Origin: Escherichia phage vB_KppS-Ant
Strand: one strand, 5' to 3'
Length of the DNA: 16,548 nt
Sequence record: LR881103
The notes under the pieces were generated by a model. It saw only the letters and a program-made list of their open reading frames with translations, had not been told where the DNA came from and searched no databases. This document shows, in pieces, positions 380 through 13,450 of the stretch (its first letter is position 1; each line of letters begins with the position of its first letter). A program made the position numbers and the translations under genes.

Positions 380-2024
380 TTACGCCATCGCCATAAAATC
401 GGGCGAAATTCCGGCCTGTAAGCGGGTAAAACAGGCCGTCGAAAGGTACTTTTCAGACCTGAATGACCCCCGTTACGTGTTCGATACAGCGACCGTAGAG
501 CGGTTTATTGCGTTCTCCCGGCTTTGTCCTCACGTCAAAGGGCCGTTGCGCGGTCAGCCTATCATGCTGGAGCCGTGGCAGCAGTTCGCCTTTGCTAACC
601 TGCTGGGCTTTAAGGTCAGTGCTACGGGGCGCAGGAAGTACAGCAGCGCCTTTATCGAGGTGCCGCGTAAGAATGCCAAATCCACCGTAGCTGCAATGCT
701 GGCTAACTGGTTTCTGGTGATGGAGCAGGGCCAGCAAGACATTTACACGGCGGCGGTGAGCCGGGATCAGGCTCGTATCGTGTTCGACGATGCCCGTCAG
801 ATGTGCCTGCTGTCAAAACCGCTGAAAAAGCGCGTGAATATTCAGGCTCATAAAATGATTTTCCCGAAGAATAACAGCCTGTTAAAGCCGCTGGCGGCGA
901 AAGCGGCCACCATCGAGGGGACGAATCCCAGCCTGGCTATTGTCGATGAGTACCACCTTCACCCGGATAACGGCGTTTACTCCGCACTTGAGCTGGGTAT
1001 GGGGGCACGTCCTGAAGCGGTTTTATTCGCCATCACCACCGCCGGGAGTAACGTTGTTTCTGCCTGCAAGCAGCATTACGACTACTGCTGTCAGATTCTG
1101 GCCGGGGAAGAGAGCAACGATTCGCTGTTTGTTCTGATTTACGAACTGGACGACGAAAGCGAGGTTGATCAGCCTGAAATGTGGATCAAGGCTAACCCGA
1201 ATCTGGATATCTCCGTTGATGCGGCAAAACTGGAGGCCACTATCCAGAAAGCACGGGGCATCCCGTCGCAATGGGTGGAGATGCTGACCAAACGTTTCAA
1301 TATCTGGTGTCAGGGTTCCACACCGTGGATGGGCGCGGGGGCCTGGGACGCCTGCAAACTCGACTATGAAGAAAGCGAGCTGGCCGGAATGGAATGTTAT
1401 GCAGGTCTGGACTTGTCCTCAACCAGCGATATCACCAGTGTAAATTACGCTTTTCCGTTCGACAGGGAGATTAGGTTACTGACAAGGCACTATCTGCCGG
1501 AAGCGACACTTAATAATGTTTCCAATAAAAACCGCGCCATTTACCGCCAGTGGGTGAAAGCAGGCTGGATTCGTACCACTCCCGGCGACTGCATCGATTA
1601 TGACCGCATCCGCGACGATATTCTGCGCGATGCCGAAACATTCAATATCCGTCTGGTGGGCTTCGATACGTGGAACGCCACGCATCTGCGTACCCAACTA
1701 CAGGGGGCGGGCCTTGAGGTAGAGCCGTTCCAGCAAACCTATCTTAAATTCAGCCCGGTAGCGAAATCGTTTGAAGTGTTCGTTAACCGCAAGGTGGTGC
1801 GCCATCGCGGCGATCCGGTACTGGCCTGGGCGATTGGTAACGTGGTGATGGAGTCCGACGCCAACGCCAATATCAAGCCCAACAAGAAGAAATCCTCCAA
1901 CAAGATTGATCCGGCAGTGGCTGCGTTAATGGCGTTCGGCACATTCCAGGCTGAGCATGAGGATTTTGCATTTGATATGAGCGAAAGCCACAAAGATCGC
2001 CTCAGTCATTTTGACGGGGTGTAA
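363..2024 (+). CDS. terL: Phage terminase large subunit (ATPase/nuclease)
   Basis: 553 aa; Walker A-like VPRKNAKST and Walker B-like LAIVDEYH; C-terminal nuclease-like region; TTG start overlapping the terS 3' end with AGGA 8 nt upstream. Confidence 0.85.
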   Translation: MTAWNDYAIAIKSGEIPACKRVKQAVERYFSDLNDPRYVFDTATVERFIAFSRLCPHVKGPLRGQPIMLEPWQQFAFANLLGFKVSATGRRKYSSAFIEVPRKNAKSTVAAMLANWFLVMEQGQQDIYTAAVSRDQARIVFDDARQMCLLSKPLKKRVNIQAHKMIFPKNNSLLKPLAAKAATIEGTNPSLAIVDEYHLHPDNGVYSALELGMGARPEAVLFAITTAGSNVVSACKQHYDYCCQILAGEESNDSLFVLIYELDDESEVDQPEMWIKANPNLDISVDAAKLEATIQKARGIPSQWVEMLTKRFNIWCQGSTPWMGAGAWDACKLDYEESELAGMECYAGLDLSSTSDITSVNYAFPFDREIRLLTRHYLPEATLNNVSNKNRAIYRQWVKAGWIRTTPGDCIDYDRIRDDILRDAETFNIRLVGFDTWNATHLRTQLQGAGLEVEPFQQTYLKFSPVAKSFEVFVNRKVVRHRGDPVLAWAIGNVVMESDANANIKPNKKKSSNKIDPAVAALMAFGTFQAEHEDFAFDMSESHKDRLSHFDGV

Positions 2025-2035
2025 GGAGAAAGATT

Positions 2036-4333
2036 ATGGCAGGTAAATCATTAGGCACTCTCACCATTGACCTGATCGCCAGAACCGGCGGTTTTGTCCA
2101 GGGTATGGATAAAGCCGAACGTTCATCACAAAAATGGCGGGATAACGTTAAAAAAGATGCCGCAGCCGTGGGTTCAGCCCTTGCTGCTGTTGGCACAGCC
2201 GCAGCAGCGGCGGCTATCGGTGTTAGTGCCGCTGGTATTGCACTGGTAAAAAATACCTCAGAGCAGATCACTGAAACTGATCGCTGGGCTAAATCGCTAA
2301 AAATGTCTACTCAGGATTTGCTTTCATGGCAGTTTGCTGCTGAGAAAGCAGGGTTGACCGGGGATAATATTGCTGACATCTTCAAGGATATTAACGATAA
2401 AGTCGGCGATGCTGTCCTGAACAAGTCAGGTGAGGCTGCTCAGGCTCTGGATACTCTCGGGCTTTCAGCTGAGAAACTGGCCCAGCAATCCCCTGATAAG
2501 CAGTTACTGGCTATCAGCTCGGCATTGCAAAAAATCCCCTCTCAGGCCGGGAAAACTAATATCCTCGAAAGCCTGGGGAATGACCTGTCAAAAATGCTGC
2601 CGTTGTTCGACAACAATAACGAGAAGCTGAAGCAGTTTATCCAGCTGTCAAAAGATTTTGGTGTCGCTCCGCCCCAGGAGGATATTGATAACCTGGTTAA
2701 GGTTAATCAGTTTTTCCAGGATATTGAGAGCAGTGCACAGGGGTTAAAGATCGAGATTGCCAGTGGCCTGGCTAAAGTAGACCTCTCACCGATTCAGGAT
2801 GGACTTGATGATATCCGGGATGTGTTTACCGATCCTGCTGTTCTGTCAGGTCTGGCAAAGCTGGTCGGAGGGATGGCGGAACTTGTTGGCTGGATGGGTA
2901 AGCTAAGTTCTGAATCTGCTAATTTTCTCAGCCATATATTTGAAGTGCCTGACAGGTTTAAGGCGGGTGGCTGGTACGAGTTTGAAAAAAATCAGAGATT
3001 AGGAGCAATAGCAGATACGCTTCAATCAGATTTAGGGGGAATAACTAAACCATCTTCAAACTCTGAGTTGCCAATAAATAATAACCTGCTCCCCGGGCAG
3101 AGCAATCAGAAACAAACTCAAAAGCCTGATGCTGAGGCAAAAAAACTTGAAAGTGCCTATAAAGCCGTAGAACAGTCATATTTAAAGCAAATTGCGCTGG
3201 TGGATCAGCTAACCGGGAAAACCAAAGACGCCACTGAAGTAGAAAAACTACATTTCGATTTAGTATCTGGTCGTCTGGTTGGGATAAATAAAGAACAGCA
3301 AATCAGGCTTGAGGGCTTGGCCTCAGAAGTTGATAAATATAACGCGTTGTCAAAATTTCGAGATTTGCAGGATGAGTTATTAACTCCAGAAGAAAAATTA
3401 CTTAAAACGACGAGAGAACGTTTTGAAATATTAAAAGATATTCAGGGAATGAAGGGGATCAGCCCTGATGAATATAAAAAAGCAGCAGAAGCCATATCGA
3501 AAGATTCATTTACAGATATGCCTAAATTTAGTGGTCTTGATCCGATGTTTGGCGGTCAATCTGGAGAGTTAAGAAAAGTTGATGACGCACAGAAAGAACA
3601 GGAAAAATGGTATCAGAATCAGCTCGATTTGCTGGAACAGAACCGTCAGGCACGTTCTGACCTTAATGATGAGTGGGATGCCAGAGAGCTTGAACTGAAG
3701 AAAAAACACCAGGATGAAATGAATAAGCTCGATGAAGCCCGTAATCAGCTGATGTTGAGCAGTGTTGTCGATGGGCTTGGTTCTATGGTGGATTTGACCC
3801 GTACAGCTTTTGGTGAGCAATCAGGAGTATACAAAGCCGCGTTTGCAGTTCAGAAAGCCGCGGCTATTGCTCAGTCTGTTATCGCTATCCAGCAGGGGAT
3901 CGCGATGGCGGCTGCAAACCCTTTCCCGTACAACCTTGCAGCGATGGCCAGCGTAGCCGCTTCTACAGCCGGTATTGTGTCGAACATTGCGGCCGTGGGT
4001 ATGGCTCACGATGGTATTGATGCTGTTCCAGAAACCGGAACATGGCTTCTCCAGAAGGGCGAACGCGTAGTCACGGCGAATACCAGCGCGAAACTGGATG
4101 CGACCCTTAACCGTGTCGCCCAGCAATCCACTTCTGGTAATCAGATTTCCCAGGAATTTAATTTTAACGTTAATGGCGATCCTTCTGATGCTCAGATAGC
4201 CATGATGAAGAAAGCGGCCGCTGACGGTGCCAAGATGGGGTATCAAAAGGCGGTCAATTCAGTAATTACTGGTCAGGGTGATTTGCACAAGGCTCTGATG
4301 ACGAAAACTAATTCAGGCAGAAAAATAGGGTGA
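2036..4333 (+). CDS. Tail tape-measure-like protein (lambda gpH family architecture)
   Basis: 765 aa; N-terminal GTLTIDLIARTGGFVQGM segment followed by an Ala-rich hydrophobic stretch; long central charged Lys/Glu/Gln-rich helical region; C-terminal hydrophobic Ala/Gly-rich block then GIDAVPETGTWLLQKGERVVTANTS, which resembles the conserved C-terminal motif of lambda-family tape-measure proteins; strong RBS (AAGGAG) upstream. Confidence 0.65.
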   Translation: MAGKSLGTLTIDLIARTGGFVQGMDKAERSSQKWRDNVKKDAAAVGSALAAVGTAAAAAAIGVSAAGIALVKNTSEQITETDRWAKSLKMSTQDLLSWQFAAEKAGLTGDNIADIFKDINDKVGDAVLNKSGEAAQALDTLGLSAEKLAQQSPDKQLLAISSALQKIPSQAGKTNILESLGNDLSKMLPLFDNNNEKLKQFIQLSKDFGVAPPQEDIDNLVKVNQFFQDIESSAQGLKIEIASGLAKVDLSPIQDGLDDIRDVFTDPAVLSGLAKLVGGMAELVGWMGKLSSESANFLSHIFEVPDRFKAGGWYEFEKNQRLGAIADTLQSDLGGITKPSSNSELPINNNLLPGQSNQKQTQKPDAEAKKLESAYKAVEQSYLKQIALVDQLTGKTKDATEVEKLHFDLVSGRLVGINKEQQIRLEGLASEVDKYNALSKFRDLQDELLTPEEKLLKTTRERFEILKDIQGMKGISPDEYKKAAEAISKDSFTDMPKFSGLDPMFGGQSGELRKVDDAQKEQEKWYQNQLDLLEQNRQARSDLNDEWDARELELKKKHQDEMNKLDEARNQLMLSSVVDGLGSMVDLTRTAFGEQSGVYKAAFAVQKAAAIAQSVIAIQQGIAMAAANPFPYNLAAMASVAASTAGIVSNIAAVGMAHDGIDAVPETGTWLLQKGERVVTANTSAKLDATLNRVAQQSTSGNQISQEFNFNVNGDPSDAQIAMMKKAAADGAKMGYQKAVNSVITGQGDLHKALMTKTNSGRKIG

Positions 4334-4548
4334 TGAAGATGACAGAACTTGAAAGTTTATTTTACGAGATGATGCCGGGTCATATTGCCCACGCGATGAA
4401 AATTGAAGGGGCAAAAATTCTGGCAGAAAGTACGCAGAAAGAGGCCGAACGTCAGTCAACGTTAACCGGCCTGTCTTCTGAGCTTATCATTCAAACTGCG
4501 ATTCAGGCGATCTCTATGCAGATGAAAAACTGGCAAGTAGTCCACTGA
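4330..4548 (+). CDS. Hypothetical small protein (72 aa), start overlaps the tape-measure stop
   Basis: ORF with GTG/ATG starts overlapping the upstream TGA; no recognisable motif. Confidence 0.4.
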   Translation: MMKMTELESLFYEMMPGHIAHAMKIEGAKILAESTQKEAERQSTLTGLSSELIIQTAIQAISMQMKNWQVVH

Positions 4549-4597
4549 CAAGGTTATGGCCCTCAATCGGGGGCCACACTACCAACTGAGGTGCTGC

Positions 4598-4786
4598 ATG
4601 TTAAAAAGAGAAGCTTTAGAGTCTGCCATTATCAGTGCAGCAAAATTGCAGGGGCATGATCTTAACGGGCGAGATCGTCTTATGGTGCGTAATCGCGTTG
4701 CCACTTGCTTGGCTGCGAAAGAACGCCACCGGCAAAGGATGGATGCCGAACCGTATCAATGGAGAAAGCCGGAAAGGCCAAGGTGA
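4598..4786 (+). CDS. Hypothetical small basic protein (about 62 aa; internal ATG of ORF 4556..4786)
   Basis: GAGG 6 nt upstream of ATG at 4598 (the ATG at 4556 has only a 2-nt spacer after AAGG); followed by an intrinsic terminator. Confidence 0.3.
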   Translation: MLKREALESAIISAAKLQGHDLNGRDRLMVRNRVATCLAAKERHRQRMDAEPYQWRKPERPR

Positions 4787-4803
4787 TGAACCCAACCAAT
4801 CAA

Positions 4804-4837
4804 AGCACTGGACTATGTTCTGGTGCTTTTTTATTTG
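4804..4837 (+). terminator. Rho-independent terminator (hairpin then T-tract)
   Basis: agcactgg...ctggtgc stem followed by tttttta ttt immediately after the 4786 stop. Confidence 0.5.
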
Positions 4838-4849
4838 TGCGAGCCAACG

Positions 4850-4871
4850 TGTATAAACATATGTATAAACA
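4850..4871. repeat. Tandem pair of TGTATAAACA decamers (left copy of a 22-bp composite repeat)
   Basis: tgtataaaca-ta-tgtataaaca at 4850..4871, repeated 21/22 at 5083..5104. Confidence 0.7.
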
Positions 4872-4875
4872 CTAA

Positions 4876-4915
4876 TAAAAAAGGCGCTTCCCCATGCCGA
4901 AGAGCGCCTTTTTAA
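4876..4915. terminator. Bidirectional intrinsic terminator-like hairpin flanked by A-run and T-run
   Basis: aaaaaAGGCGCT...AGCGCCTTttt: 8-bp stem (4881..4888 with 4903..4910) with A-tract upstream and T-tract downstream. Confidence 0.5.
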
Positions 4916-5082
4916 ACAAGCATTTAACTGATTGGTATCAGTTCATGCCGTACTGTCATATTAGCTGTTTTCATGCTTTTAGATGATTTTAATATTCATA
5001 TAATAATCAATGTGTTGTATAAATTCATGCCTGTATATTGTTCCAGTGTTTTTCTTTGTTTATGCTATTATGCAAGCAATTC

Positions 5083-5104
5083 TGTATAAACATTTGTATA
5101 AACA
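5083..5104. repeat. Tandem pair of TGTATAAACA decamers (right copy), just upstream of the integrase start
   Basis: tgtataaaca-tt-tgtataaaca at 5083..5104; candidate integrase arm-type sites. Confidence 0.7.
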
Positions 5105-5122
5105 CTTTGGGCTGGGTGGTCT

Positions 5123-6343
5123 ATGGCTGGCGAACTTAACAAACTGAGCGACAGGAAGTTAAAGGGATTACATGGTATCCCGGCCAGTAAGATTGAGTTC
5201 TATGCTGATGGTGCCGGGCTGAGCGCCAAGGTAACTAAAGCTGGTGGTATTAGCTGGGTGTTTACTTACCGACTCGACGGGCAGAAGCTGCATCGTCTTA
5301 CTCTGGGACGATACCCGGATATGAGCCTCAAAGAGGCCCGTTCTTCGCGTGATAAATGCCGCCAATGGCTGGCCTCAGGTAAAGATCCAAAGCACCAGTT
5401 GGCGCTGACCACTCAGGAAACGCTTAAACCGGTCACTGTTAAGGAAGCTATAGAATACTGGATACGCGAATATGCAGAAGAGAACCGCGCGAATGTTGAA
5501 CGGCACAAAGCGGAGCTGCGAAAACACATTTATCCTTATATAGGGAAAATGGCGCTCGCTGACTGTGAAACACGATACTGGCTTGACTGCTTTGACAGGA
5601 TGAAAAAGAAAACTCCAGTCGCCGCAGGTTATGTGTTCCAGATGTGCAAACAAGCCCTGAAATTCTGCCGGGTTCGTCGCTATGCTGTGAGTACCGCGCT
5701 TGAAGATTTAACAATTCCAGATGTCGGTAAAAAACAGGCAAAAAAAGACCGGGTATTAAACGATAAAGAGGCTGGCGATTTATGGGCTGCCATTTCCTCT
5801 GGCACTTGCTTCATGCCTTACTACACCAGGCTACTGACAATCTTAATGGTGTTTGGGTGCCGAACGCAGGAGGCCAGGCTATCAGAGTGGAGTGAATGGG
5901 ATATGGATGCCTGGGTCTGGACAGTTCCCAAAGAGCACAGCAAGGGCGGCGAGAAGATTGTAAGACCTGTGCCGGATGCCATGCGCAAATTCATTGAAAT
6001 ACTGCATGATGAAACGAAACGATCCGGCCTTTTGCTTGGGTCGGTTAAAGGCAGTGAAGCGGTAAGTCAGTGGGGCCGCGGTGTTTATAAAAAGCTGGGG
6101 CATTCTGAACCATGGACACTGCACGATCTAAGACGAACTTTAGCAACGCATATGAATAATATGGGTATAGCACCACACGTTGTCGAACAGTTGTTGGGGC
6201 ACTCAATGCCGGGAGTTATGGCGATTTATAACCGTAGTCTGTACTTGCCTGAGAAACTGGATGCGTTGAATAAATGGTATGACAGACTTGATATTTTATC
6301 AGGTGGATTCACTAACATTGTTTTGTTGAATAGGGCTGAATAA
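5123..6343 (+). CDS. int: Tyrosine site-specific integrase, P4-type (N-terminal arm-binding domain plus C-terminal catalytic domain)
   Basis: 406 aa; N-terminal L.D.K...GL.....G..W.F.YR..G.....LG.YP..SL.EAR...D pattern of P4-like integrases; C-terminal HDLRRT ... LLGH ... Y catalytic signature. Confidence 0.9.
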   Translation: MAGELNKLSDRKLKGLHGIPASKIEFYADGAGLSAKVTKAGGISWVFTYRLDGQKLHRLTLGRYPDMSLKEARSSRDKCRQWLASGKDPKHQLALTTQETLKPVTVKEAIEYWIREYAEENRANVERHKAELRKHIYPYIGKMALADCETRYWLDCFDRMKKKTPVAAGYVFQMCKQALKFCRVRRYAVSTALEDLTIPDVGKKQAKKDRVLNDKEAGDLWAAISSGTCFMPYYTRLLTILMVFGCRTQEARLSEWSEWDMDAWVWTVPKEHSKGGEKIVRPVPDAMRKFIEILHDETKRSGLLLGSVKGSEAVSQWGRGVYKKLGHSEPWTLHDLRRTLATHMNNMGIAPHVVEQLLGHSMPGVMAIYNRSLYLPEKLDALNKWYDRLDILSGGFTNIVLLNRAE

Positions 6344-6993
6344 TGACTAGTTTTCTAAAATTGGGTATTTTCGAGCGAGAAGCCAAAGCCCCGGAACTCA
6401 ATATTAAACAACTTGCACTACTTATGTGTGGGGTAGATCCGACAGTTAAAACTGCTGATATCCCTGAGGCGAAAGTTGAAGCTTACAATATATACTATCG
6501 ACAACTGAGTAGATGGTTATCAGCATCTAAATTATTTCGAGGTGGAAACTCAACAGCCTATCCCGCAGACTATATGTTTGCTCTGGCATATCCTCTTATT
6601 GATGAAGATATTACACCACAACCCATAAAGGACAGATGCCTTGCAGCGGTGGCTATAATTGCTAATCAAAACAAAGGAAAAGAGCATCTTTATGCTATGG
6701 GAGGGGATGAGCTTTTACAGGTCGGAATTGCATTGAAAAGCAGCAAACGCGGCTTGCATCGTAAAGAAGATGAAAAGGAATATAATGATAAATTAATGGG
6801 GATGCTGGTCAAGCTTATAGCACATAAGATAGGCCATTCGTTTGGCACCTCTAAAAAACCAAGCATCTCGGCTATTTTAAACGAACTATATAAATTAGCT
6901 GATGAGGAAGGTATATCTAAAACTGGATTATCCAAATCAGCAATATATGATAAAATTCGCAAGGCATTAAATTCGATTTATTATACGGAATGA
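6343..6993 (+). CDS. Hypothetical protein (216 aa), AT-rich cargo gene translationally coupled to int
   Basis: Start overlaps the int stop (TAATG); codon composition visibly more AT-rich than the neighbouring core genes; no recognisable catalytic motif. Confidence 0.55.
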   Translation: MTSFLKLGIFEREAKAPELNIKQLALLMCGVDPTVKTADIPEAKVEAYNIYYRQLSRWLSASKLFRGGNSTAYPADYMFALAYPLIDEDITPQPIKDRCLAAVAIIANQNKGKEHLYAMGGDELLQVGIALKSSKRGLHRKEDEKEYNDKLMGMLVKLIAHKIGHSFGTSKKPSISAILNELYKLADEEGISKTGLSKSAIYDKIRKALNSIYYTE

Positions 6994-9954: not shown

Positions 9955-11689
9955 TGTGAAAACCCTCCCGCGCGACAAAATGGAGGAGGCCATCATCTTT
10001 GCTGGAACGGGAGCATGGAAAGCCGCTCAGGATTACCAGAAAGGGAAGGGCGAGCATGGAGACGATGTTCCGCCTGTGGTTCTGGATCACACCCAACTGG
10101 CGGAATTACCACACCTGCGCATTGTTGATAAAGGCCGTCGATTTGCCCGTGTCTGTCAGGCCGGGCTTATCGAGCAAAACCAAATCAGCATGATTGCAAA
10201 TAAGTTGTGTGAGGCTGGCGTTACCAATGCTGAGTTTATCAACGAACAAGGCGAGAAAGAGGACTGGACGCCATTGATGAAACGTCTGGAAGACGAGCCC
10301 CTTATGGTGACTACGAGGGGAAGTGCTACGCCAGCGCTTAACCAGATGGGAGCCAGCCAGCGCGGGGAAGTTCTGCTTGCTCATTACAATGGCAATCTGG
10401 CGATCCATGCTGATTCCGACACGGTTCATCATTACAACGGCGTGGTGTGGGTTCCGCTTTCGGATAAAGAGCTGCAGCGAGAAATGGCGCAGATTTTTAT
10501 TGATTCCGAAGTCGCCTATTCGCAGAACGCGATTAAATCCGCTGTCGATACAATGAAGCTGGGCCTCCCGGTAATGGGTAACACAGCCCGTAACCTGATT
10601 GGTTTCAGCAACGGGGTTTTTGATACCCGGTTAGGCCAATTTCGACCGCATGATAAAAAGGACTGGCTTATCGTTGCGAGCGAATTGCCATTCAGCGAAC
10701 CAGCAGAAGGTGAAACTCTGGCAACCCATGCGCCTAACTTCTGGAAATGGCTCCGCCGCTCTGTGGCGGATAATGACCGAAAAGCAGACCGCGTACTGTC
10801 TGCGCTGTTTATGGTGCTGGCGAACCGGTACGACTGGCAGCTGTTTCTTGAGGTAACGGGGCCGGGCGGAAGTGGTAAAAGTGTCATGGCTGAGATCTGC
10901 ACGATGCTGGCGGGCAAGGCCAATACGGTATCGGCGAGCATGGCGGCGCTGGAGAACCCAAGGGAAAGGGCGCTGGTAGTTGGCTATTCGCTGATTATCA
11001 TGCCGGATATGACCCGGTACGCTGGCGACGGCGCAGGGATTAAAGCTATCACTGGCGGGGATAAGGTGGCTATCGACCCAAAACACAAAGCGCCATATTC
11101 AACCCGTATCCCGGCGGTGGTGCTGGCCGTCAATAACAATGCTATGACGTTCAGTGACCGCAGCGGCGGTATTTCAAGGCGACGGGTGATTTTCAACTTC
11201 ACCGAAGTAGTGCCGGAAAACGAACGCGATCCGATGCTGGCCGAGAAGATTGAAGGAGAGCTTGCGGTAATCATCCGGCATCTGCTTGTGCGCTTTTCCA
11301 GCCAGAACGAAGCCAAACAGCTTTTGCATGAGCAGCAGAAATCAGAAGAAGCGCTGGCCATCAAACGTGAAGGGGATTCACTGGTGGACTTTTGCGGATA
11401 CCTGATGGCTTCGGTGGTTTGTGATGGAATGCTGATTGGTAATGCCGAGATCGTGCCATTCAGCCCGCGCCGTTATCTGTATCACGCTTATCTGGCTTAC
11501 ATGCGGGCCAATGGTCTTAGCAAGCCTGTATCGTTAATGCGGTTCGGTACGGATATGCCAGGCGCAATGGCTGAATATGGCAAGGAGTACCAGAAGCGCA
11601 AAACTAAAAATGGCATAAGATCGAACGTCACCCTGCATGATGATTCAGAAGACTGGATGCCAATGTGTACCGATACAACAAAAGAATAA
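9938..11689 (+). CDS. Replication protein: P4-alpha / D5-family SF3 helicase (phage/plasmid primase C-terminal type), probable origin-binding initiator
   Basis: 583 aa; Walker A GPGGSGKS about 300 aa in; D5_N-like region upstream (HYNGVVWVP); GTG start with GGGAGG RBS; iteron cluster immediately downstream. Confidence 0.8.
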   Translation: MKNAPNVKTLPRDKMEEAIIFAGTGAWKAAQDYQKGKGEHGDDVPPVVLDHTQLAELPHLRIVDKGRRFARVCQAGLIEQNQISMIANKLCEAGVTNAEFINEQGEKEDWTPLMKRLEDEPLMVTTRGSATPALNQMGASQRGEVLLAHYNGNLAIHADSDTVHHYNGVVWVPLSDKELQREMAQIFIDSEVAYSQNAIKSAVDTMKLGLPVMGNTARNLIGFSNGVFDTRLGQFRPHDKKDWLIVASELPFSEPAEGETLATHAPNFWKWLRRSVADNDRKADRVLSALFMVLANRYDWQLFLEVTGPGGSGKSVMAEICTMLAGKANTVSASMAALENPRERALVVGYSLIIMPDMTRYAGDGAGIKAITGGDKVAIDPKHKAPYSTRIPAVVLAVNNNAMTFSDRSGGISRRRVIFNFTEVVPENERDPMLAEKIEGELAVIIRHLLVRFSSQNEAKQLLHEQQKSEEALAIKREGDSLVDFCGYLMASVVCDGMLIGNAEIVPFSPRRYLYHAYLAYMRANGLSKPVSLMRFGTDMPGAMAEYGKEYQKRKTKNGIRSNVTLHDDSEDWMPMCTDTTKE

Positions 11690-11719
11690 AGGCGGGGAAA
11701 ATTAAAAGTAATGGGATAA

Positions 11720-11950
11720 GTGTTCACCACTGTTCACCATGTATAAAAATCATTAAATAACAATATGTTAATGGGTGAACACTTTTTTATGAAGTGTTCA
11801 CCAAGTATTCACCTGTTCACCCTGTTTTATCTTTTCCTCAGTTTGAGGTGAAGGGTTGGGTGAACACTAGTGAACACCTGAAAGAATAGTATTCACCCTG
11901 TAACTATATGAATTTAATTAATAAATTATCAAAGGTGAACAGGTGAACAC
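11720..11950. promoter_or_regulatory. Origin-like iteron cluster: at least 10 copies of TGTTCACC / GGTGAACA (and the TATTCACC variant) in both orientations in AT-rich DNA
   Basis: Copies at about 11721, 11731, 11774 (inv), 11794, 11805 (variant), 11814, 11859 (inv), 11869 (inv), 11889 (variant), 11934 (inv), 11942 (inv). Confidence 0.65.
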
Positions 11951-12095
11951 TTAAACGTATATTTTTTAATTTTATTGAGCAACGCAGGATCACTTCCAGC
12001 CTGGAATACCTGGGATCAATCATGGAACACGCACCGTGGAATATTAAAAGCTAATATTTTTGTAAATTATTTGTATTCATGTTTACTCATTCTTA

Positions 12096-12123
12096 CCCCC
12101 GTCTTTTGCGGGGGTTTTCTTTA
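12096..12123 (+). terminator. Rho-independent terminator between the replication and head modules
   Basis: CCCCCG-tcttttg-CGGGGG (6-bp GC stem) followed by ttttcttt. Confidence 0.6.
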
Positions 12124-12289
12124 TATTTTTCATGTATATCTTGAAGAGTGGCACTCAGACGTGAGCCGCCACTGGCCGTTAAGTCAAGCTGTAGCGAGTA
12201 CAGCCTGCGAGAGGCAGAAAAAGATTTAACGGCCTCCCCTCCAAGCGCTGGTTTCACGTCTCTACATTAATTGATACGGAAACCACTCC

Positions 12290-13450
12290 ATGAAGAAACT
12301 ACTCGAATTACGCCAGCAGAAAGCCGCACTCAAAACACAGATGCGTTCCATGCTGGACAAAGCCGACACCGAAAAGCGCAGCCTGAACGAAGAAGAGGGC
12401 AAAAAGTTCGACGAACTCCGCGCACAGGCTGATGCGCTTGAAGTTGAAATCAACCGCCTTGAAGCCGTCGCCGAAGATCAGCGCAATCTGCCTGGTACTT
12501 CCGTTGAAGGTGATCCAGTAAGCAACGACGAGCTGCGCCACTACATCATGACCGGTGATACCCGTTCTCTCTCCACGCTGGTGCAGGCTGACGGCGGTTA
12601 TACCGTTATCCCTGAGCTGGACAAAGAGATTATGCGCCAGTTGCAGGATGATAGCGTGATGCGCTCCATCGCAACGGTGAAGACCACCAAAACCAACGAA
12701 TACCAGAAGCTGGTATCTGTGGGCGGCACTACCGTTAATCGTGGTACCGAAGGTGAGGCACGTACCGAAACCAGTACGCCGAAGATGGAGCGCGTTGATA
12801 TCAAACTCAACCCGATCTACGCCTACCCGAAAACCACTCAGGAGATTCTCGACTTCTCCGAGGTGGATATTTTGGGCTGGCTGTCTTCTGAAATTGCCGA
12901 CACCTTCACCGCGACCGAAGAAAGCGACTTTGTGAACGGCGACGGTGATAAAAAATCCAAAGGCTTCCTGTCTTACCCTCGCGCGGCCACTGCCGACAAA
13001 ACCCGTCCGTTCGGTACGCTGGAGAAGATGGAAGCGGCTGACGTTTCCTCTGATGGCCTGATCGACCTGCTGTATAAGCTGAAAGCCAAATACCGCAAAA
13101 ACGCCGTATGGGTGATGAACTCCAACACCGCAGCCAAACTGCAAAAGCTGAAAAACGGCAACGGGGATTACATCTGGCGCGATCGTCTGGTTGCCGGTTC
13201 TCCCGATACCCTGCTGGGCCGTCCGGTTCAGTACCTTGAAACCATGCCTGATGCTGATGCCGGAGAAGCGTTCCTCGCGGTTGGCGACTTCAAGCGCGGT
13301 TACTTCATCGTGGATCACACTACTGGTGTGCGTACCCGCCCTGACAACATCACCGAGCCGGGCTTCTATAAGGTTCACACCGATAAATATCTGGGCGGCG
13401 GCGTGGTGGACTCCAACGCGATCAAGATTCTGGAGCTTGCTGGTTCCTGA
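12290..13450 (+). CDS. Major capsid protein, HK97 fold/family
   Basis: 386 aa; N-terminal coiled-coil delta-domain-like region (KKLLELRQQKAALKTQ...), then ADGGYTVIPELDKEI and the overall HK97-family pattern. Confidence 0.85.
   Translation: MKKLLELRQQKAALKTQMRSMLDKADTEKRSLNEEEGKKFDELRAQADALEVEINRLEAVAEDQRNLPGTSVEGDPVSNDELRHYIMTGDTRSLSTLVQADGGYTVIPELDKEIMRQLQDDSVMRSIATVKTTKTNEYQKLVSVGGTTVNRGTEGEARTETSTPKMERVDIKLNPIYAYPKTTQEILDFSEVDILGWLSSEIADTFTATEESDFVNGDGDKKSKGFLSYPRAATADKTRPFGTLEKMEAADVSSDGLIDLLYKLKAKYRKNAVWVMNSNTAAKLQKLKNGNGDYIWRDRLVAGSPDTLLGRPVQYLETMPDADAGEAFLAVGDFKRGYFIVDHTTGVRTRPDNITEPGFYKVHTDKYLGGGVVDSNAIKILELAGS

Follow-up and report, generated by a model that had tools for sequence, protein, structure and literature searches.

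Why is the centre of this phage tape-measure gene visibly richer in A and T than its two ends? The question is raised by a DNA stretch of 16,548 nt recorded as Escherichia phage vB_KppS-Ant (LR881103; the whole stretch is referred to as the window), in which the gene tmp (2036-4333, + strand) encodes a tape-measure protein (TMP) of 765 amino acids (aa). A sequence-only reading of the window had attributed the AT-rich interior either to mosaic recombination in the length-determining region or simply to amino-acid composition, and had added that in the former case it would fit a ruler whose length is being tuned. The window was found to be an excised capsid-forming phage-inducible chromosomal island (cf-PICI), in excised or virion gene order, and tmp is cargo of this satellite. 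We consider it likely that the AT-rich stretch is an inherited signature of the least conserved centre of tmp genes of the HK022/HK97 type, a gene whose interior recombines and which is carried here as satellite cargo.

The sliding G+C fraction (GC) is 0.47-0.53 in the flanks of tmp and goes down to 0.37-0.41 at 3000-3600. Codons 300-565 (nt 2933-3730), the interval originally proposed, have a GC of 0.401 versus 0.491 for the N-terminal and 0.510 for the C-terminal part of the gene. A scan with two change-points put the block at nt 2981-3607/3619 (codons 316-524/528), which confirms the AT-rich centre and makes the earlier coordinates of 2930-3730 slightly generous. Within the block (2981-3619, + strand; codons 316-528) GC is 0.383 versus 0.496 outside, and GC at third codon positions (GC3) is 0.301 versus 0.489. 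The likelihood ratio was as high as observed in only 3 of 300 codon shuffles, and none of the six other long window genes tested in the same scan (0/6) had a significant block.

The protein sequence of the block is distinctive as well. Lys (11.7% versus 7.4% elsewhere in the protein) and Glu (9.4% versus 4.5%) are enriched in codons 316-528 and Ala is depleted (6.6% versus 14.3%), so that the description of the centre as rich in Lys, Glu and Asn holds for the first two residues but not for Asn, with 4.2% versus 5.1%. Likewise, the centre had been called helical, which agrees with an AlphaFold2 model that is largely helical according to DSSP (mean pLDDT 61, and thus weak evidence) for most of the block, but not for a predicted non-helical, low-confidence linker at aa 334-364 (pLDDT about 30); pLDDT is below 50 at aa 244-363. 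Stretches rich in Ala occur at aa 41-72 and 600-655 of the translation. Given the amino acids of nt 2933-3730, the codon usage of the flanks predicts a GC of 0.463 where 0.401 is found, and a GC3 of 0.496 where 0.35 is found (z -5.2; 0 of 5000 simulations as low). About a third of the GC drop is amino-acid content and the remainder is a use of synonymous codons that end in A or T.

To establish the history of the block we compared eight close alleles, three from satellites and five from prophages. The block was present in all eight, with a GC of 0.38-0.41 and a GC3 of 0.28-0.36, and between several of them the synonymous divergence (dS) within the block was 1.3-1.8 and thus saturated. The trough was also found in KPP5665-2, 733R5 and OXA48phi5.3, despite a different central module, and central GC3 was below that of the flanks in 48 of the 49 full-length homologues on viral contigs. 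Since the trough is common to alleles with saturated dS and to nearly all of these homologues, the AT-richness is not the scar of a recent import. As a composition anomaly the AT-rich, poorly conserved centre is ordinary and typical of this tape-measure lineage, and it should not be taken for a sign of recent horizontal import. In three loci (L013, L014 and KPP5665-2, our L001) tmp as a whole is an AT-rich outlier, with a GC3 of 0.38-0.42 versus 0.50-0.70 for the neighbouring structural genes, and the bias is strongest in the middle of the gene.

The persistence of the trough at dS above 1 and its recurrence in unrelated central modules could also be expected if low central GC3 were kept by selection on the mRNA or its translation, for instance for slow decoding or for little structure during chaperone engagement. 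We regard this explanation as unlikely, though worth bearing in mind. The tmp of HK022 has no trough (GC3 0.48-0.67 throughout) while that of Pseudomonas phage FBPa47 has only a slight one, so that a trough is no general requirement of TMPs of this kind. Moreover, the weak correlation between conservation and GC3 (rho 0.42, p 0.02) would fit relaxed codon selection equally well.

That the interior of tmp recombines followed from a segment-wise comparison of the alleles. At the 5' end (2036-2680, + strand; aa 1-215) the satellite alleles group together, with p-distances of 0-0.13 among them versus 0.19-0.23 to the five prophage alleles and a dS to the latter of 1.2-2.2. The adjoining tract of 1,365 nt (2681-4045, + strand) shows at most two differences between the window and the TMP gene of a single prophage, L011, whereas identity between the two is 63-94% in the 5' flank and 42-80% in the 3' flank; when the alignment columns were shuffled, the longest run in this comparison was 46 nt on average and 86 nt at most. 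The L011 prophage resides on the same Klebsiella pneumoniae chromosome (GCA_014218685.1) as an island copy, L019, that is 99.96-99.98% identical to the window, and the tmp genes of the two differ at a single nucleotide within the tract, as against about 285 nt in the flanks. Another K. pneumoniae genome with the island is GCA_900451765.1. Judged from these sequences, the sharing between L011 and L019 is gene conversion within one genome. The L011 prophage allele was found on one contig only and the island allele is common, so that the donor was probably the satellite, an indication rather than proof. On the contig, L011 lies at 3.96 Mb and the island at 3.11 Mb. The L011 prophage is degraded; its head genes are missing, and it has an IS605-family element directly upstream of tmp.

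Several other exchanges were recovered. With a second prophage, L014, the window has a tract in common at 2804-3342 (+ strand), where there are at most two differences in 539 nt and identity is 62-90% elsewhere in the gene. A patch at 3340-3880 (+ strand) sets the window allele apart from the commonest satellite allele, P0027 (L008-L010), to which it is 80-94% identical within the patch and 100% identical in the rest of tmp. In the satellite allele L026, from a viral contig and encoding 768 aa, the region corresponding to 3476-4060 has been replaced by an unrelated cassette (36-59% identity) and the last 270 nt or so are retained at 94-100% identity. The 3' end of tmp (4046-4333, + strand; the last 95 codons or so) is specific for the satellites, given p-distances of 0.004-0.07 among satellite alleles versus 0.30-0.50 to prophage alleles, and at the 3' end, as at the 5' end, the three satellite alleles form one group. 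At the level of single nucleotides, the base at 3039 was seen in the window only; it is different in all seven related alleles compared, namely three prophage alleles, the commonest satellite allele and three island copies of the same allele.

Length variation was analyzed within a wider family. For module mapping we used 150 representatives clustered at 50% identity, the matches of which split into an N-terminal module (aa 1 to about 290) and a C-terminal module (aa about 365/430-705), with aa 301-350 aligned in just 16-18 of the 150. Both modules occur in 85 representatives, where the length of the intervening spacer relative to the query ranges from -142 to +322 aa. In 43 diverse homologues the indels are concentrated at aa 276-450, which we consider the hypervariable, length-variable linker of the family (2861-3385, + strand); at aa 276-350 the mean insertions amount to 12-28 residues per 25-aa bin and identity is 0.09-0.16. 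Of the AT-rich block, no more than the first 63% lies in this zone. Among the viral contigs, 42 phage loci encode TMPs of 766, 806-814, 830 or 844-848 aa and have tail-tube proteins that are mostly 98-99% identical, and the TMP of seven satellite loci counts 765 aa in six cases and 768 aa in one. The more than 100 near-identical clusters of Klebsiella and Raoultella encode 765-767 aa. At 1.6 Å per TMP residue (PMC11838301), 83 aa correspond to about 13 nm of tail. Tandem Repeats Finder returned no rows and the direct repeats are short and at chance level only, so that repeat-based tuning of the length was rejected. The idea of a ruler whose length is being tuned thus applies to the phage family, with its 766-848 aa, and not to the satellite lineage, which is fixed at 765-768 aa; in the same way, aligning the homologues reveals a central third that varies in modules and in length across the family.

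With these data the possibility can be weighed that the AT-rich segment is a cassette recently imported from a phage of lower GC, the insertion of which tuned the length of the ruler. We hold this to be improbable. The interior does recombine, module swaps and length classes do occur in the family, and P0027 has a slightly lower AT content than the window allele in the patch at 3340-3880. The trough, however, is shared by alleles with saturated dS and by 48 of the 49 homologues, the length is the same to within three residues in all satellite copies, no repeats were detected and no low-GC donor was found. The tract ends (2681, 2804, 3340/3342, 3880 and 4045) do not coincide with the block ends (2981 and 3619). 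Mosaic recombination was rightly suspected for the interior of tmp, but the AT-richness does not mark out a recombined cassette, considering that all eight alleles have it.

The other half of the sequence-only reading, that the shift would be wholly due to the amino-acid content of the Lys/Glu-rich helical region, is very unlikely to be true. The enrichment of Lys and Glu, the depletion of Ala, the fall of GC at codon positions 1 and 2 and an expected GC of 0.463 versus about 0.50 in the flanks are in line with it and explain the third of the drop mentioned above. The complete explanation is refuted by the synonymous-site tests: GC3 is 0.30-0.35 versus 0.49-0.50 expected, codons that end in G or C are depleted in the block when stratified by amino acid (Mantel-Haenszel odds ratio 0.44, p 1e-5), and for 14 of the 17 amino acids tested the codons used in the block end more often in A or T.

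Is the satellite copy a genuine tape-measure gene? Its product matches PHROG 2854 ('tail length tape measure protein') over its full length (E 2e-176; residues 1-764 on profile positions 1-854 of 855), and a Pfam search of the TMP (ORF, for open reading frame, 2036-4333) gave zero family matches. The closest annotated phage TMPs in blastn and tblastn searches were those of Klebsiella phages KPP5665-2 and KpF5, Escherichia phage vB_EcoS-733R5, and gp16 of HK022. TMPs of Klebsiella prophages, encoded between the gpT and tail-tip genes, are 86-90% identical to the window TMP, whereas tmp in the window is located 3' of terL and 5' of small ORFs and attP, and not between G/GT and tail-tip genes. 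The ratio of nonsynonymous to synonymous divergence (dN/dS) was 0.05-0.08 in every tmp segment compared. As dN/dS is low in all segments, the sequence comparison indicates strong purifying selection and the satellite copy is a functional gene. It is hardly conceivable that the satellite tmp is a decaying, non-functional prophage tail fragment captured by illegitimate recombination, as might be read from the lack of tail-tube, chaperone or tip genes alongside it and from phage homology that begins exactly at the ribosome-binding site and stops at the stop codon, when more than 100 clusters, from at least eight Klebsiella and Raoultella species, have an intact ORF, when dN/dS is 0.06 at a dS of 0.61 between satellite alleles (the window and K. 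aerogenes), and when tmp and the small ORF are retained together as a cassette in two unrelated island backbones.

The reading that we prefer, an inherited AT-rich centre in a recombining satellite-borne gene, would then work as follows. A Lys/Glu-rich and Ala-poor segment gives about a third of the GC drop and A/T-ending codons that are stable in the lineage give the rest. Homologous gene conversion moves tracts on the scale of a kilobase between tmp copies, here between the satellite and co-resident prophages, and over longer times phages swap interior modules of differing length, resulting in different tail lengths. The satellite tmp would be transcribed with terS and terL and be translationally coupled to an ORF of 71 aa, with its length kept at 765-768 aa and with both ends distinct from the prophage alleles compared. 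We infer that upon induction the satellite TMP would be built into helper-derived tails, with the chaperone, tube and tip of the helper, in parallel with reports on the TMP of the Vibrio satellites discussed below.

Some observations weigh against this reading. The island itself lacks a chaperone and a tip gene with which its TMP would enter tails. Two of the prophage alleles have a shallow, non-significant trough, with odds ratios of 0.73 and 0.81. The block GC is 0.383 in the window allele versus 0.396 in P0027; the patch at 3340-3880 thus slightly deepens the trough, which implies that recombination contributes a little to the AT-richness. Finally, the low GC3 could stem from weak codon selection, from a separate gene pool or from selection that acts on the mRNA.

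The island itself has the gene order terS (23-379, + strand), terL (363-2024, + strand), tmp, two small ORFs, attP, int, AlpA, D5-type primase, capsid and protease, followed by portal, head completion protein, connector and HNH. The terminase genes were recognized jointly by the Pfam families Terminase_4, TerL_ATPase and TerL_nuclease, and further families include Phage_integrase, Arm-DNA-bind_3, Phage_AlpA, D5_N with DUF5906, and Pox_D5. With its 16,548 nt the island is within the size of about 14-17 kb of a cf-PICI. The attP core (4869-4952, no strand assigned) marks the window as the excised form of the island. In E. coli OW1E2, where a related island is integrated between yhdJ and fis, the right junction (by fis) matches window positions 4816-4952 and the left junction 4869-5200; in Klebsiella the integration site adjoins fis. 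Islands of E. coli align to 77% of the window with an identity of 93.6%, and those between yhdJ and fis have a DUF3892 gene in the slot that is occupied here by tmp. In integrated copies 69 nt separate terS from the small ORF after HNH, and this segment, which is missing from the window ends, is probably the cos region. None of the window ORFs searched was a tube, chaperone, tip, fibre or holin gene, which leaves tmp as the sole tail gene. Given that the definition of cf-PICIs excludes tail genes, the island is a cf-PICI variant with tmp. In a PADLOC search neither tmp nor any of six other window ORFs of unassigned function matched a defence system.

The cassette of tmp and the small ORF (window 2034-4520) was also found, at 87.7% identity, in a different island backbone of K. 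aerogenes (GCA_021973135.1). This island (L015 1-9000) is inserted at the same site adjoining fis and contains int, AlpA, a helicase-primase (phrog_2850), a 314-aa distant capsid-like protein (phrog_617) and tmp with the small ORF, without portal, protease or terminase genes.

Other parts of the window are AT-rich too, such as a 216-aa ORF 3' of the integrase gene (6343-6993; GC 0.38; phrog_30524, unknown function) and the segment between the primase and capsid genes (11550-12150; GC 0.33-0.39), a slot that is called variable in the cf-PICI literature. An ORF of 356 aa runs antisense within the capsid gene (12308-13378, - strand) and is probably a by-product of the codon composition of that gene. 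The prophages L012-L016 have what looks to be a moron hotspot in the slot that separates the gpT gene (Phage_tail_T) from tmp. The cargo is different from one prophage to the next and consists of YecR, of Arc-type repressors that carry a P22 antirepressor N domain, and of ORFs with 203 and 223 aa; some of it is very AT-rich (GC3 0.28).

At the left edge of tmp a Shine-Dalgarno sequence (AAGGAGA, 2024-2030, within the interval 2024-2035 on the + strand) follows directly on the terL stop. Homology to phage and prophage TMP loci begins at 2025, and homology to the other island backbone at 2034. At the right edge the tmp stop TGA (4331-4333) overlaps the ATG at 4333 in the sequence TGATG, by which an orphan ORF of 71 (or 69) aa (4333-4548, + strand) would be translationally coupled to tmp. 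This ORF is kept with tmp in the two unrelated backbones (L015 8304-8513; L008 12304-12513); its 69-71-aa homologues were found in Klebsiella only, in 12 clusters, and searches for family matches and distant homologues gave none. The next ORF, of 76 aa (4556-4786, + strand), matches phrog_7271 (unknown function) and is present in related islands. That the small ORFs could derive from the gene located after tmp in phages was rejected, as tblastn gave nothing in the prophage loci. In one K. pneumoniae island copy (L009 12488-13701) an insertion sequence with an rve-family transposase lies between the 69-aa and 76-aa ORFs. A terminator-like hairpin with a T run (4802-4829, + strand) is the probable end of a terS-terL-tmp operon, as far as its sequence indicates. 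Promoter-like sites are not enriched at 1900-5200 (5 versus 5.9 expected), so that nothing points to a promoter or an embedded element within the AT-rich block, and an Rfam scan of the window identified no RNA family.

The organization of the cassette invites speculation. It might be a portable tail-hijacking unit, in which the TMP, with N- and C-terminal ends of its own, nucleates tails from helper parts for the satellite capsids, conversion with resident prophages keeps its interior compatible with the chaperone and tube of the helper, and the small protein acts on the helper TMP in the way of Rta, a small protein of a Vibrio satellite (see below). We put this forward as a doubtful proposal; if it were true, helpers with TMPs of 806-848 aa should yield satellite particles with tails that are about 7-13 nm shorter.

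Irrespective of that proposal, the data provide a clean case of recent recombination inside tmp: 1,365 nt with 1-2 differences, flanks that are 20-50% divergent, and both copies in the same chromosome. In a large survey of mosaicism among phage proteins, no case in TMPs could be confirmed as both recent and genuine (PMC10684548). Satellite-encoded TMPs were reported only in 2025 and have been shown to work in the PICI-like elements (PLEs) of Vibrio, and here tmp is found in a cf-PICI. A tmp cassette that is under selection and occurs in at least two backbones offers a testable entry point to a possible manipulation of tail assembly by enterobacterial satellites, and hence to their host range and transfer. 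The conversion between satellite and prophage tmp, in its satellite context, is of moderate interest and of a recently recognised kind.

Compared to known phages, the window TMP is of the HK022 gp16 type, to which it is homologous from end to end, with 50% identity at aa 1-440. Its N- and C-terminal parts share 63% of their residues with the TMPs of KPP5665-2 and KpF5, and the tmp genes of KPP5665-2 (gp15) and vB_EcoS-733R5 have the same AT-rich centre, although the central-to-C module (aa about 440-650) is nearer to that of Pseudomonas phage vB_PeaS_FBPa47 (genus Detrevirus) than to that of KPP5665-2. The TMPs of KPP5665-2, 733R5 and HK022 are 41-79 aa longer, whereas those of the closest prophage alleles, with 765-767 aa, belong to the same length class.

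With regard to satellites, the nearest precedent is formed by the PLEs of Vibrio cholerae, which encode their own TMP and incorporate it into chimeric tails; this TMP is about 20% identical to that of the helper, 95 aa shorter, and accompanied by a chaperone and a baseplate hub (PMC11838301). The island in the window likewise encodes a TMP, but one that is followed only by the 71-aa and 76-aa ORFs, without a chaperone or hub gene, and that resembles and exchanges tracts with TMPs of equal length from prophages; a helper phage was not identified. The position of the 71-aa ORF recalls Rta of PLE11, a protein of 80 aa that acts on the helper TMP (PMC11838301), a likeness of position. The EPIP satellites of Mycolicibacterium carry a TMP gene as well (bioRxiv 10.64898/2025.12.02.691453); they have an unrelated host and gene set, and their tails are reported to be variable and longer than those of the helper, whereas the window TMP is in the length class of prophage TMPs. 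The same preprint, of December 2025, still calls TMPs otherwise absent from satellites. According to PMC11838301, tmp genes have also been predicted in satellites from beyond the Vibrionaceae, and cf-PICI genomes were among those screened.

The cf-PICIs have been described as being without tail genes, and the SatelliteFinder model counts tail profiles among its 'forbidden components' (PMC10085698). The slot after their packaging module has been called variable and is 'expected to encode immune systems' according to a preprint that makes no mention of a TMP (bioRxiv 10.1101/2025.02.11.637232). The window differs in that its post-terL slot holds tmp and the small ORFs. In all other respects listed it resembles cf-PICIs such as EcCIGN02175 and KpCIDSM30104, as int, AlpA, primase, head genes, HNH, terS and terL are all present, and the capsids of KpCIDSM30104 accept tails of HK022 (bioRxiv 10.1101/2025.02.11.637232).

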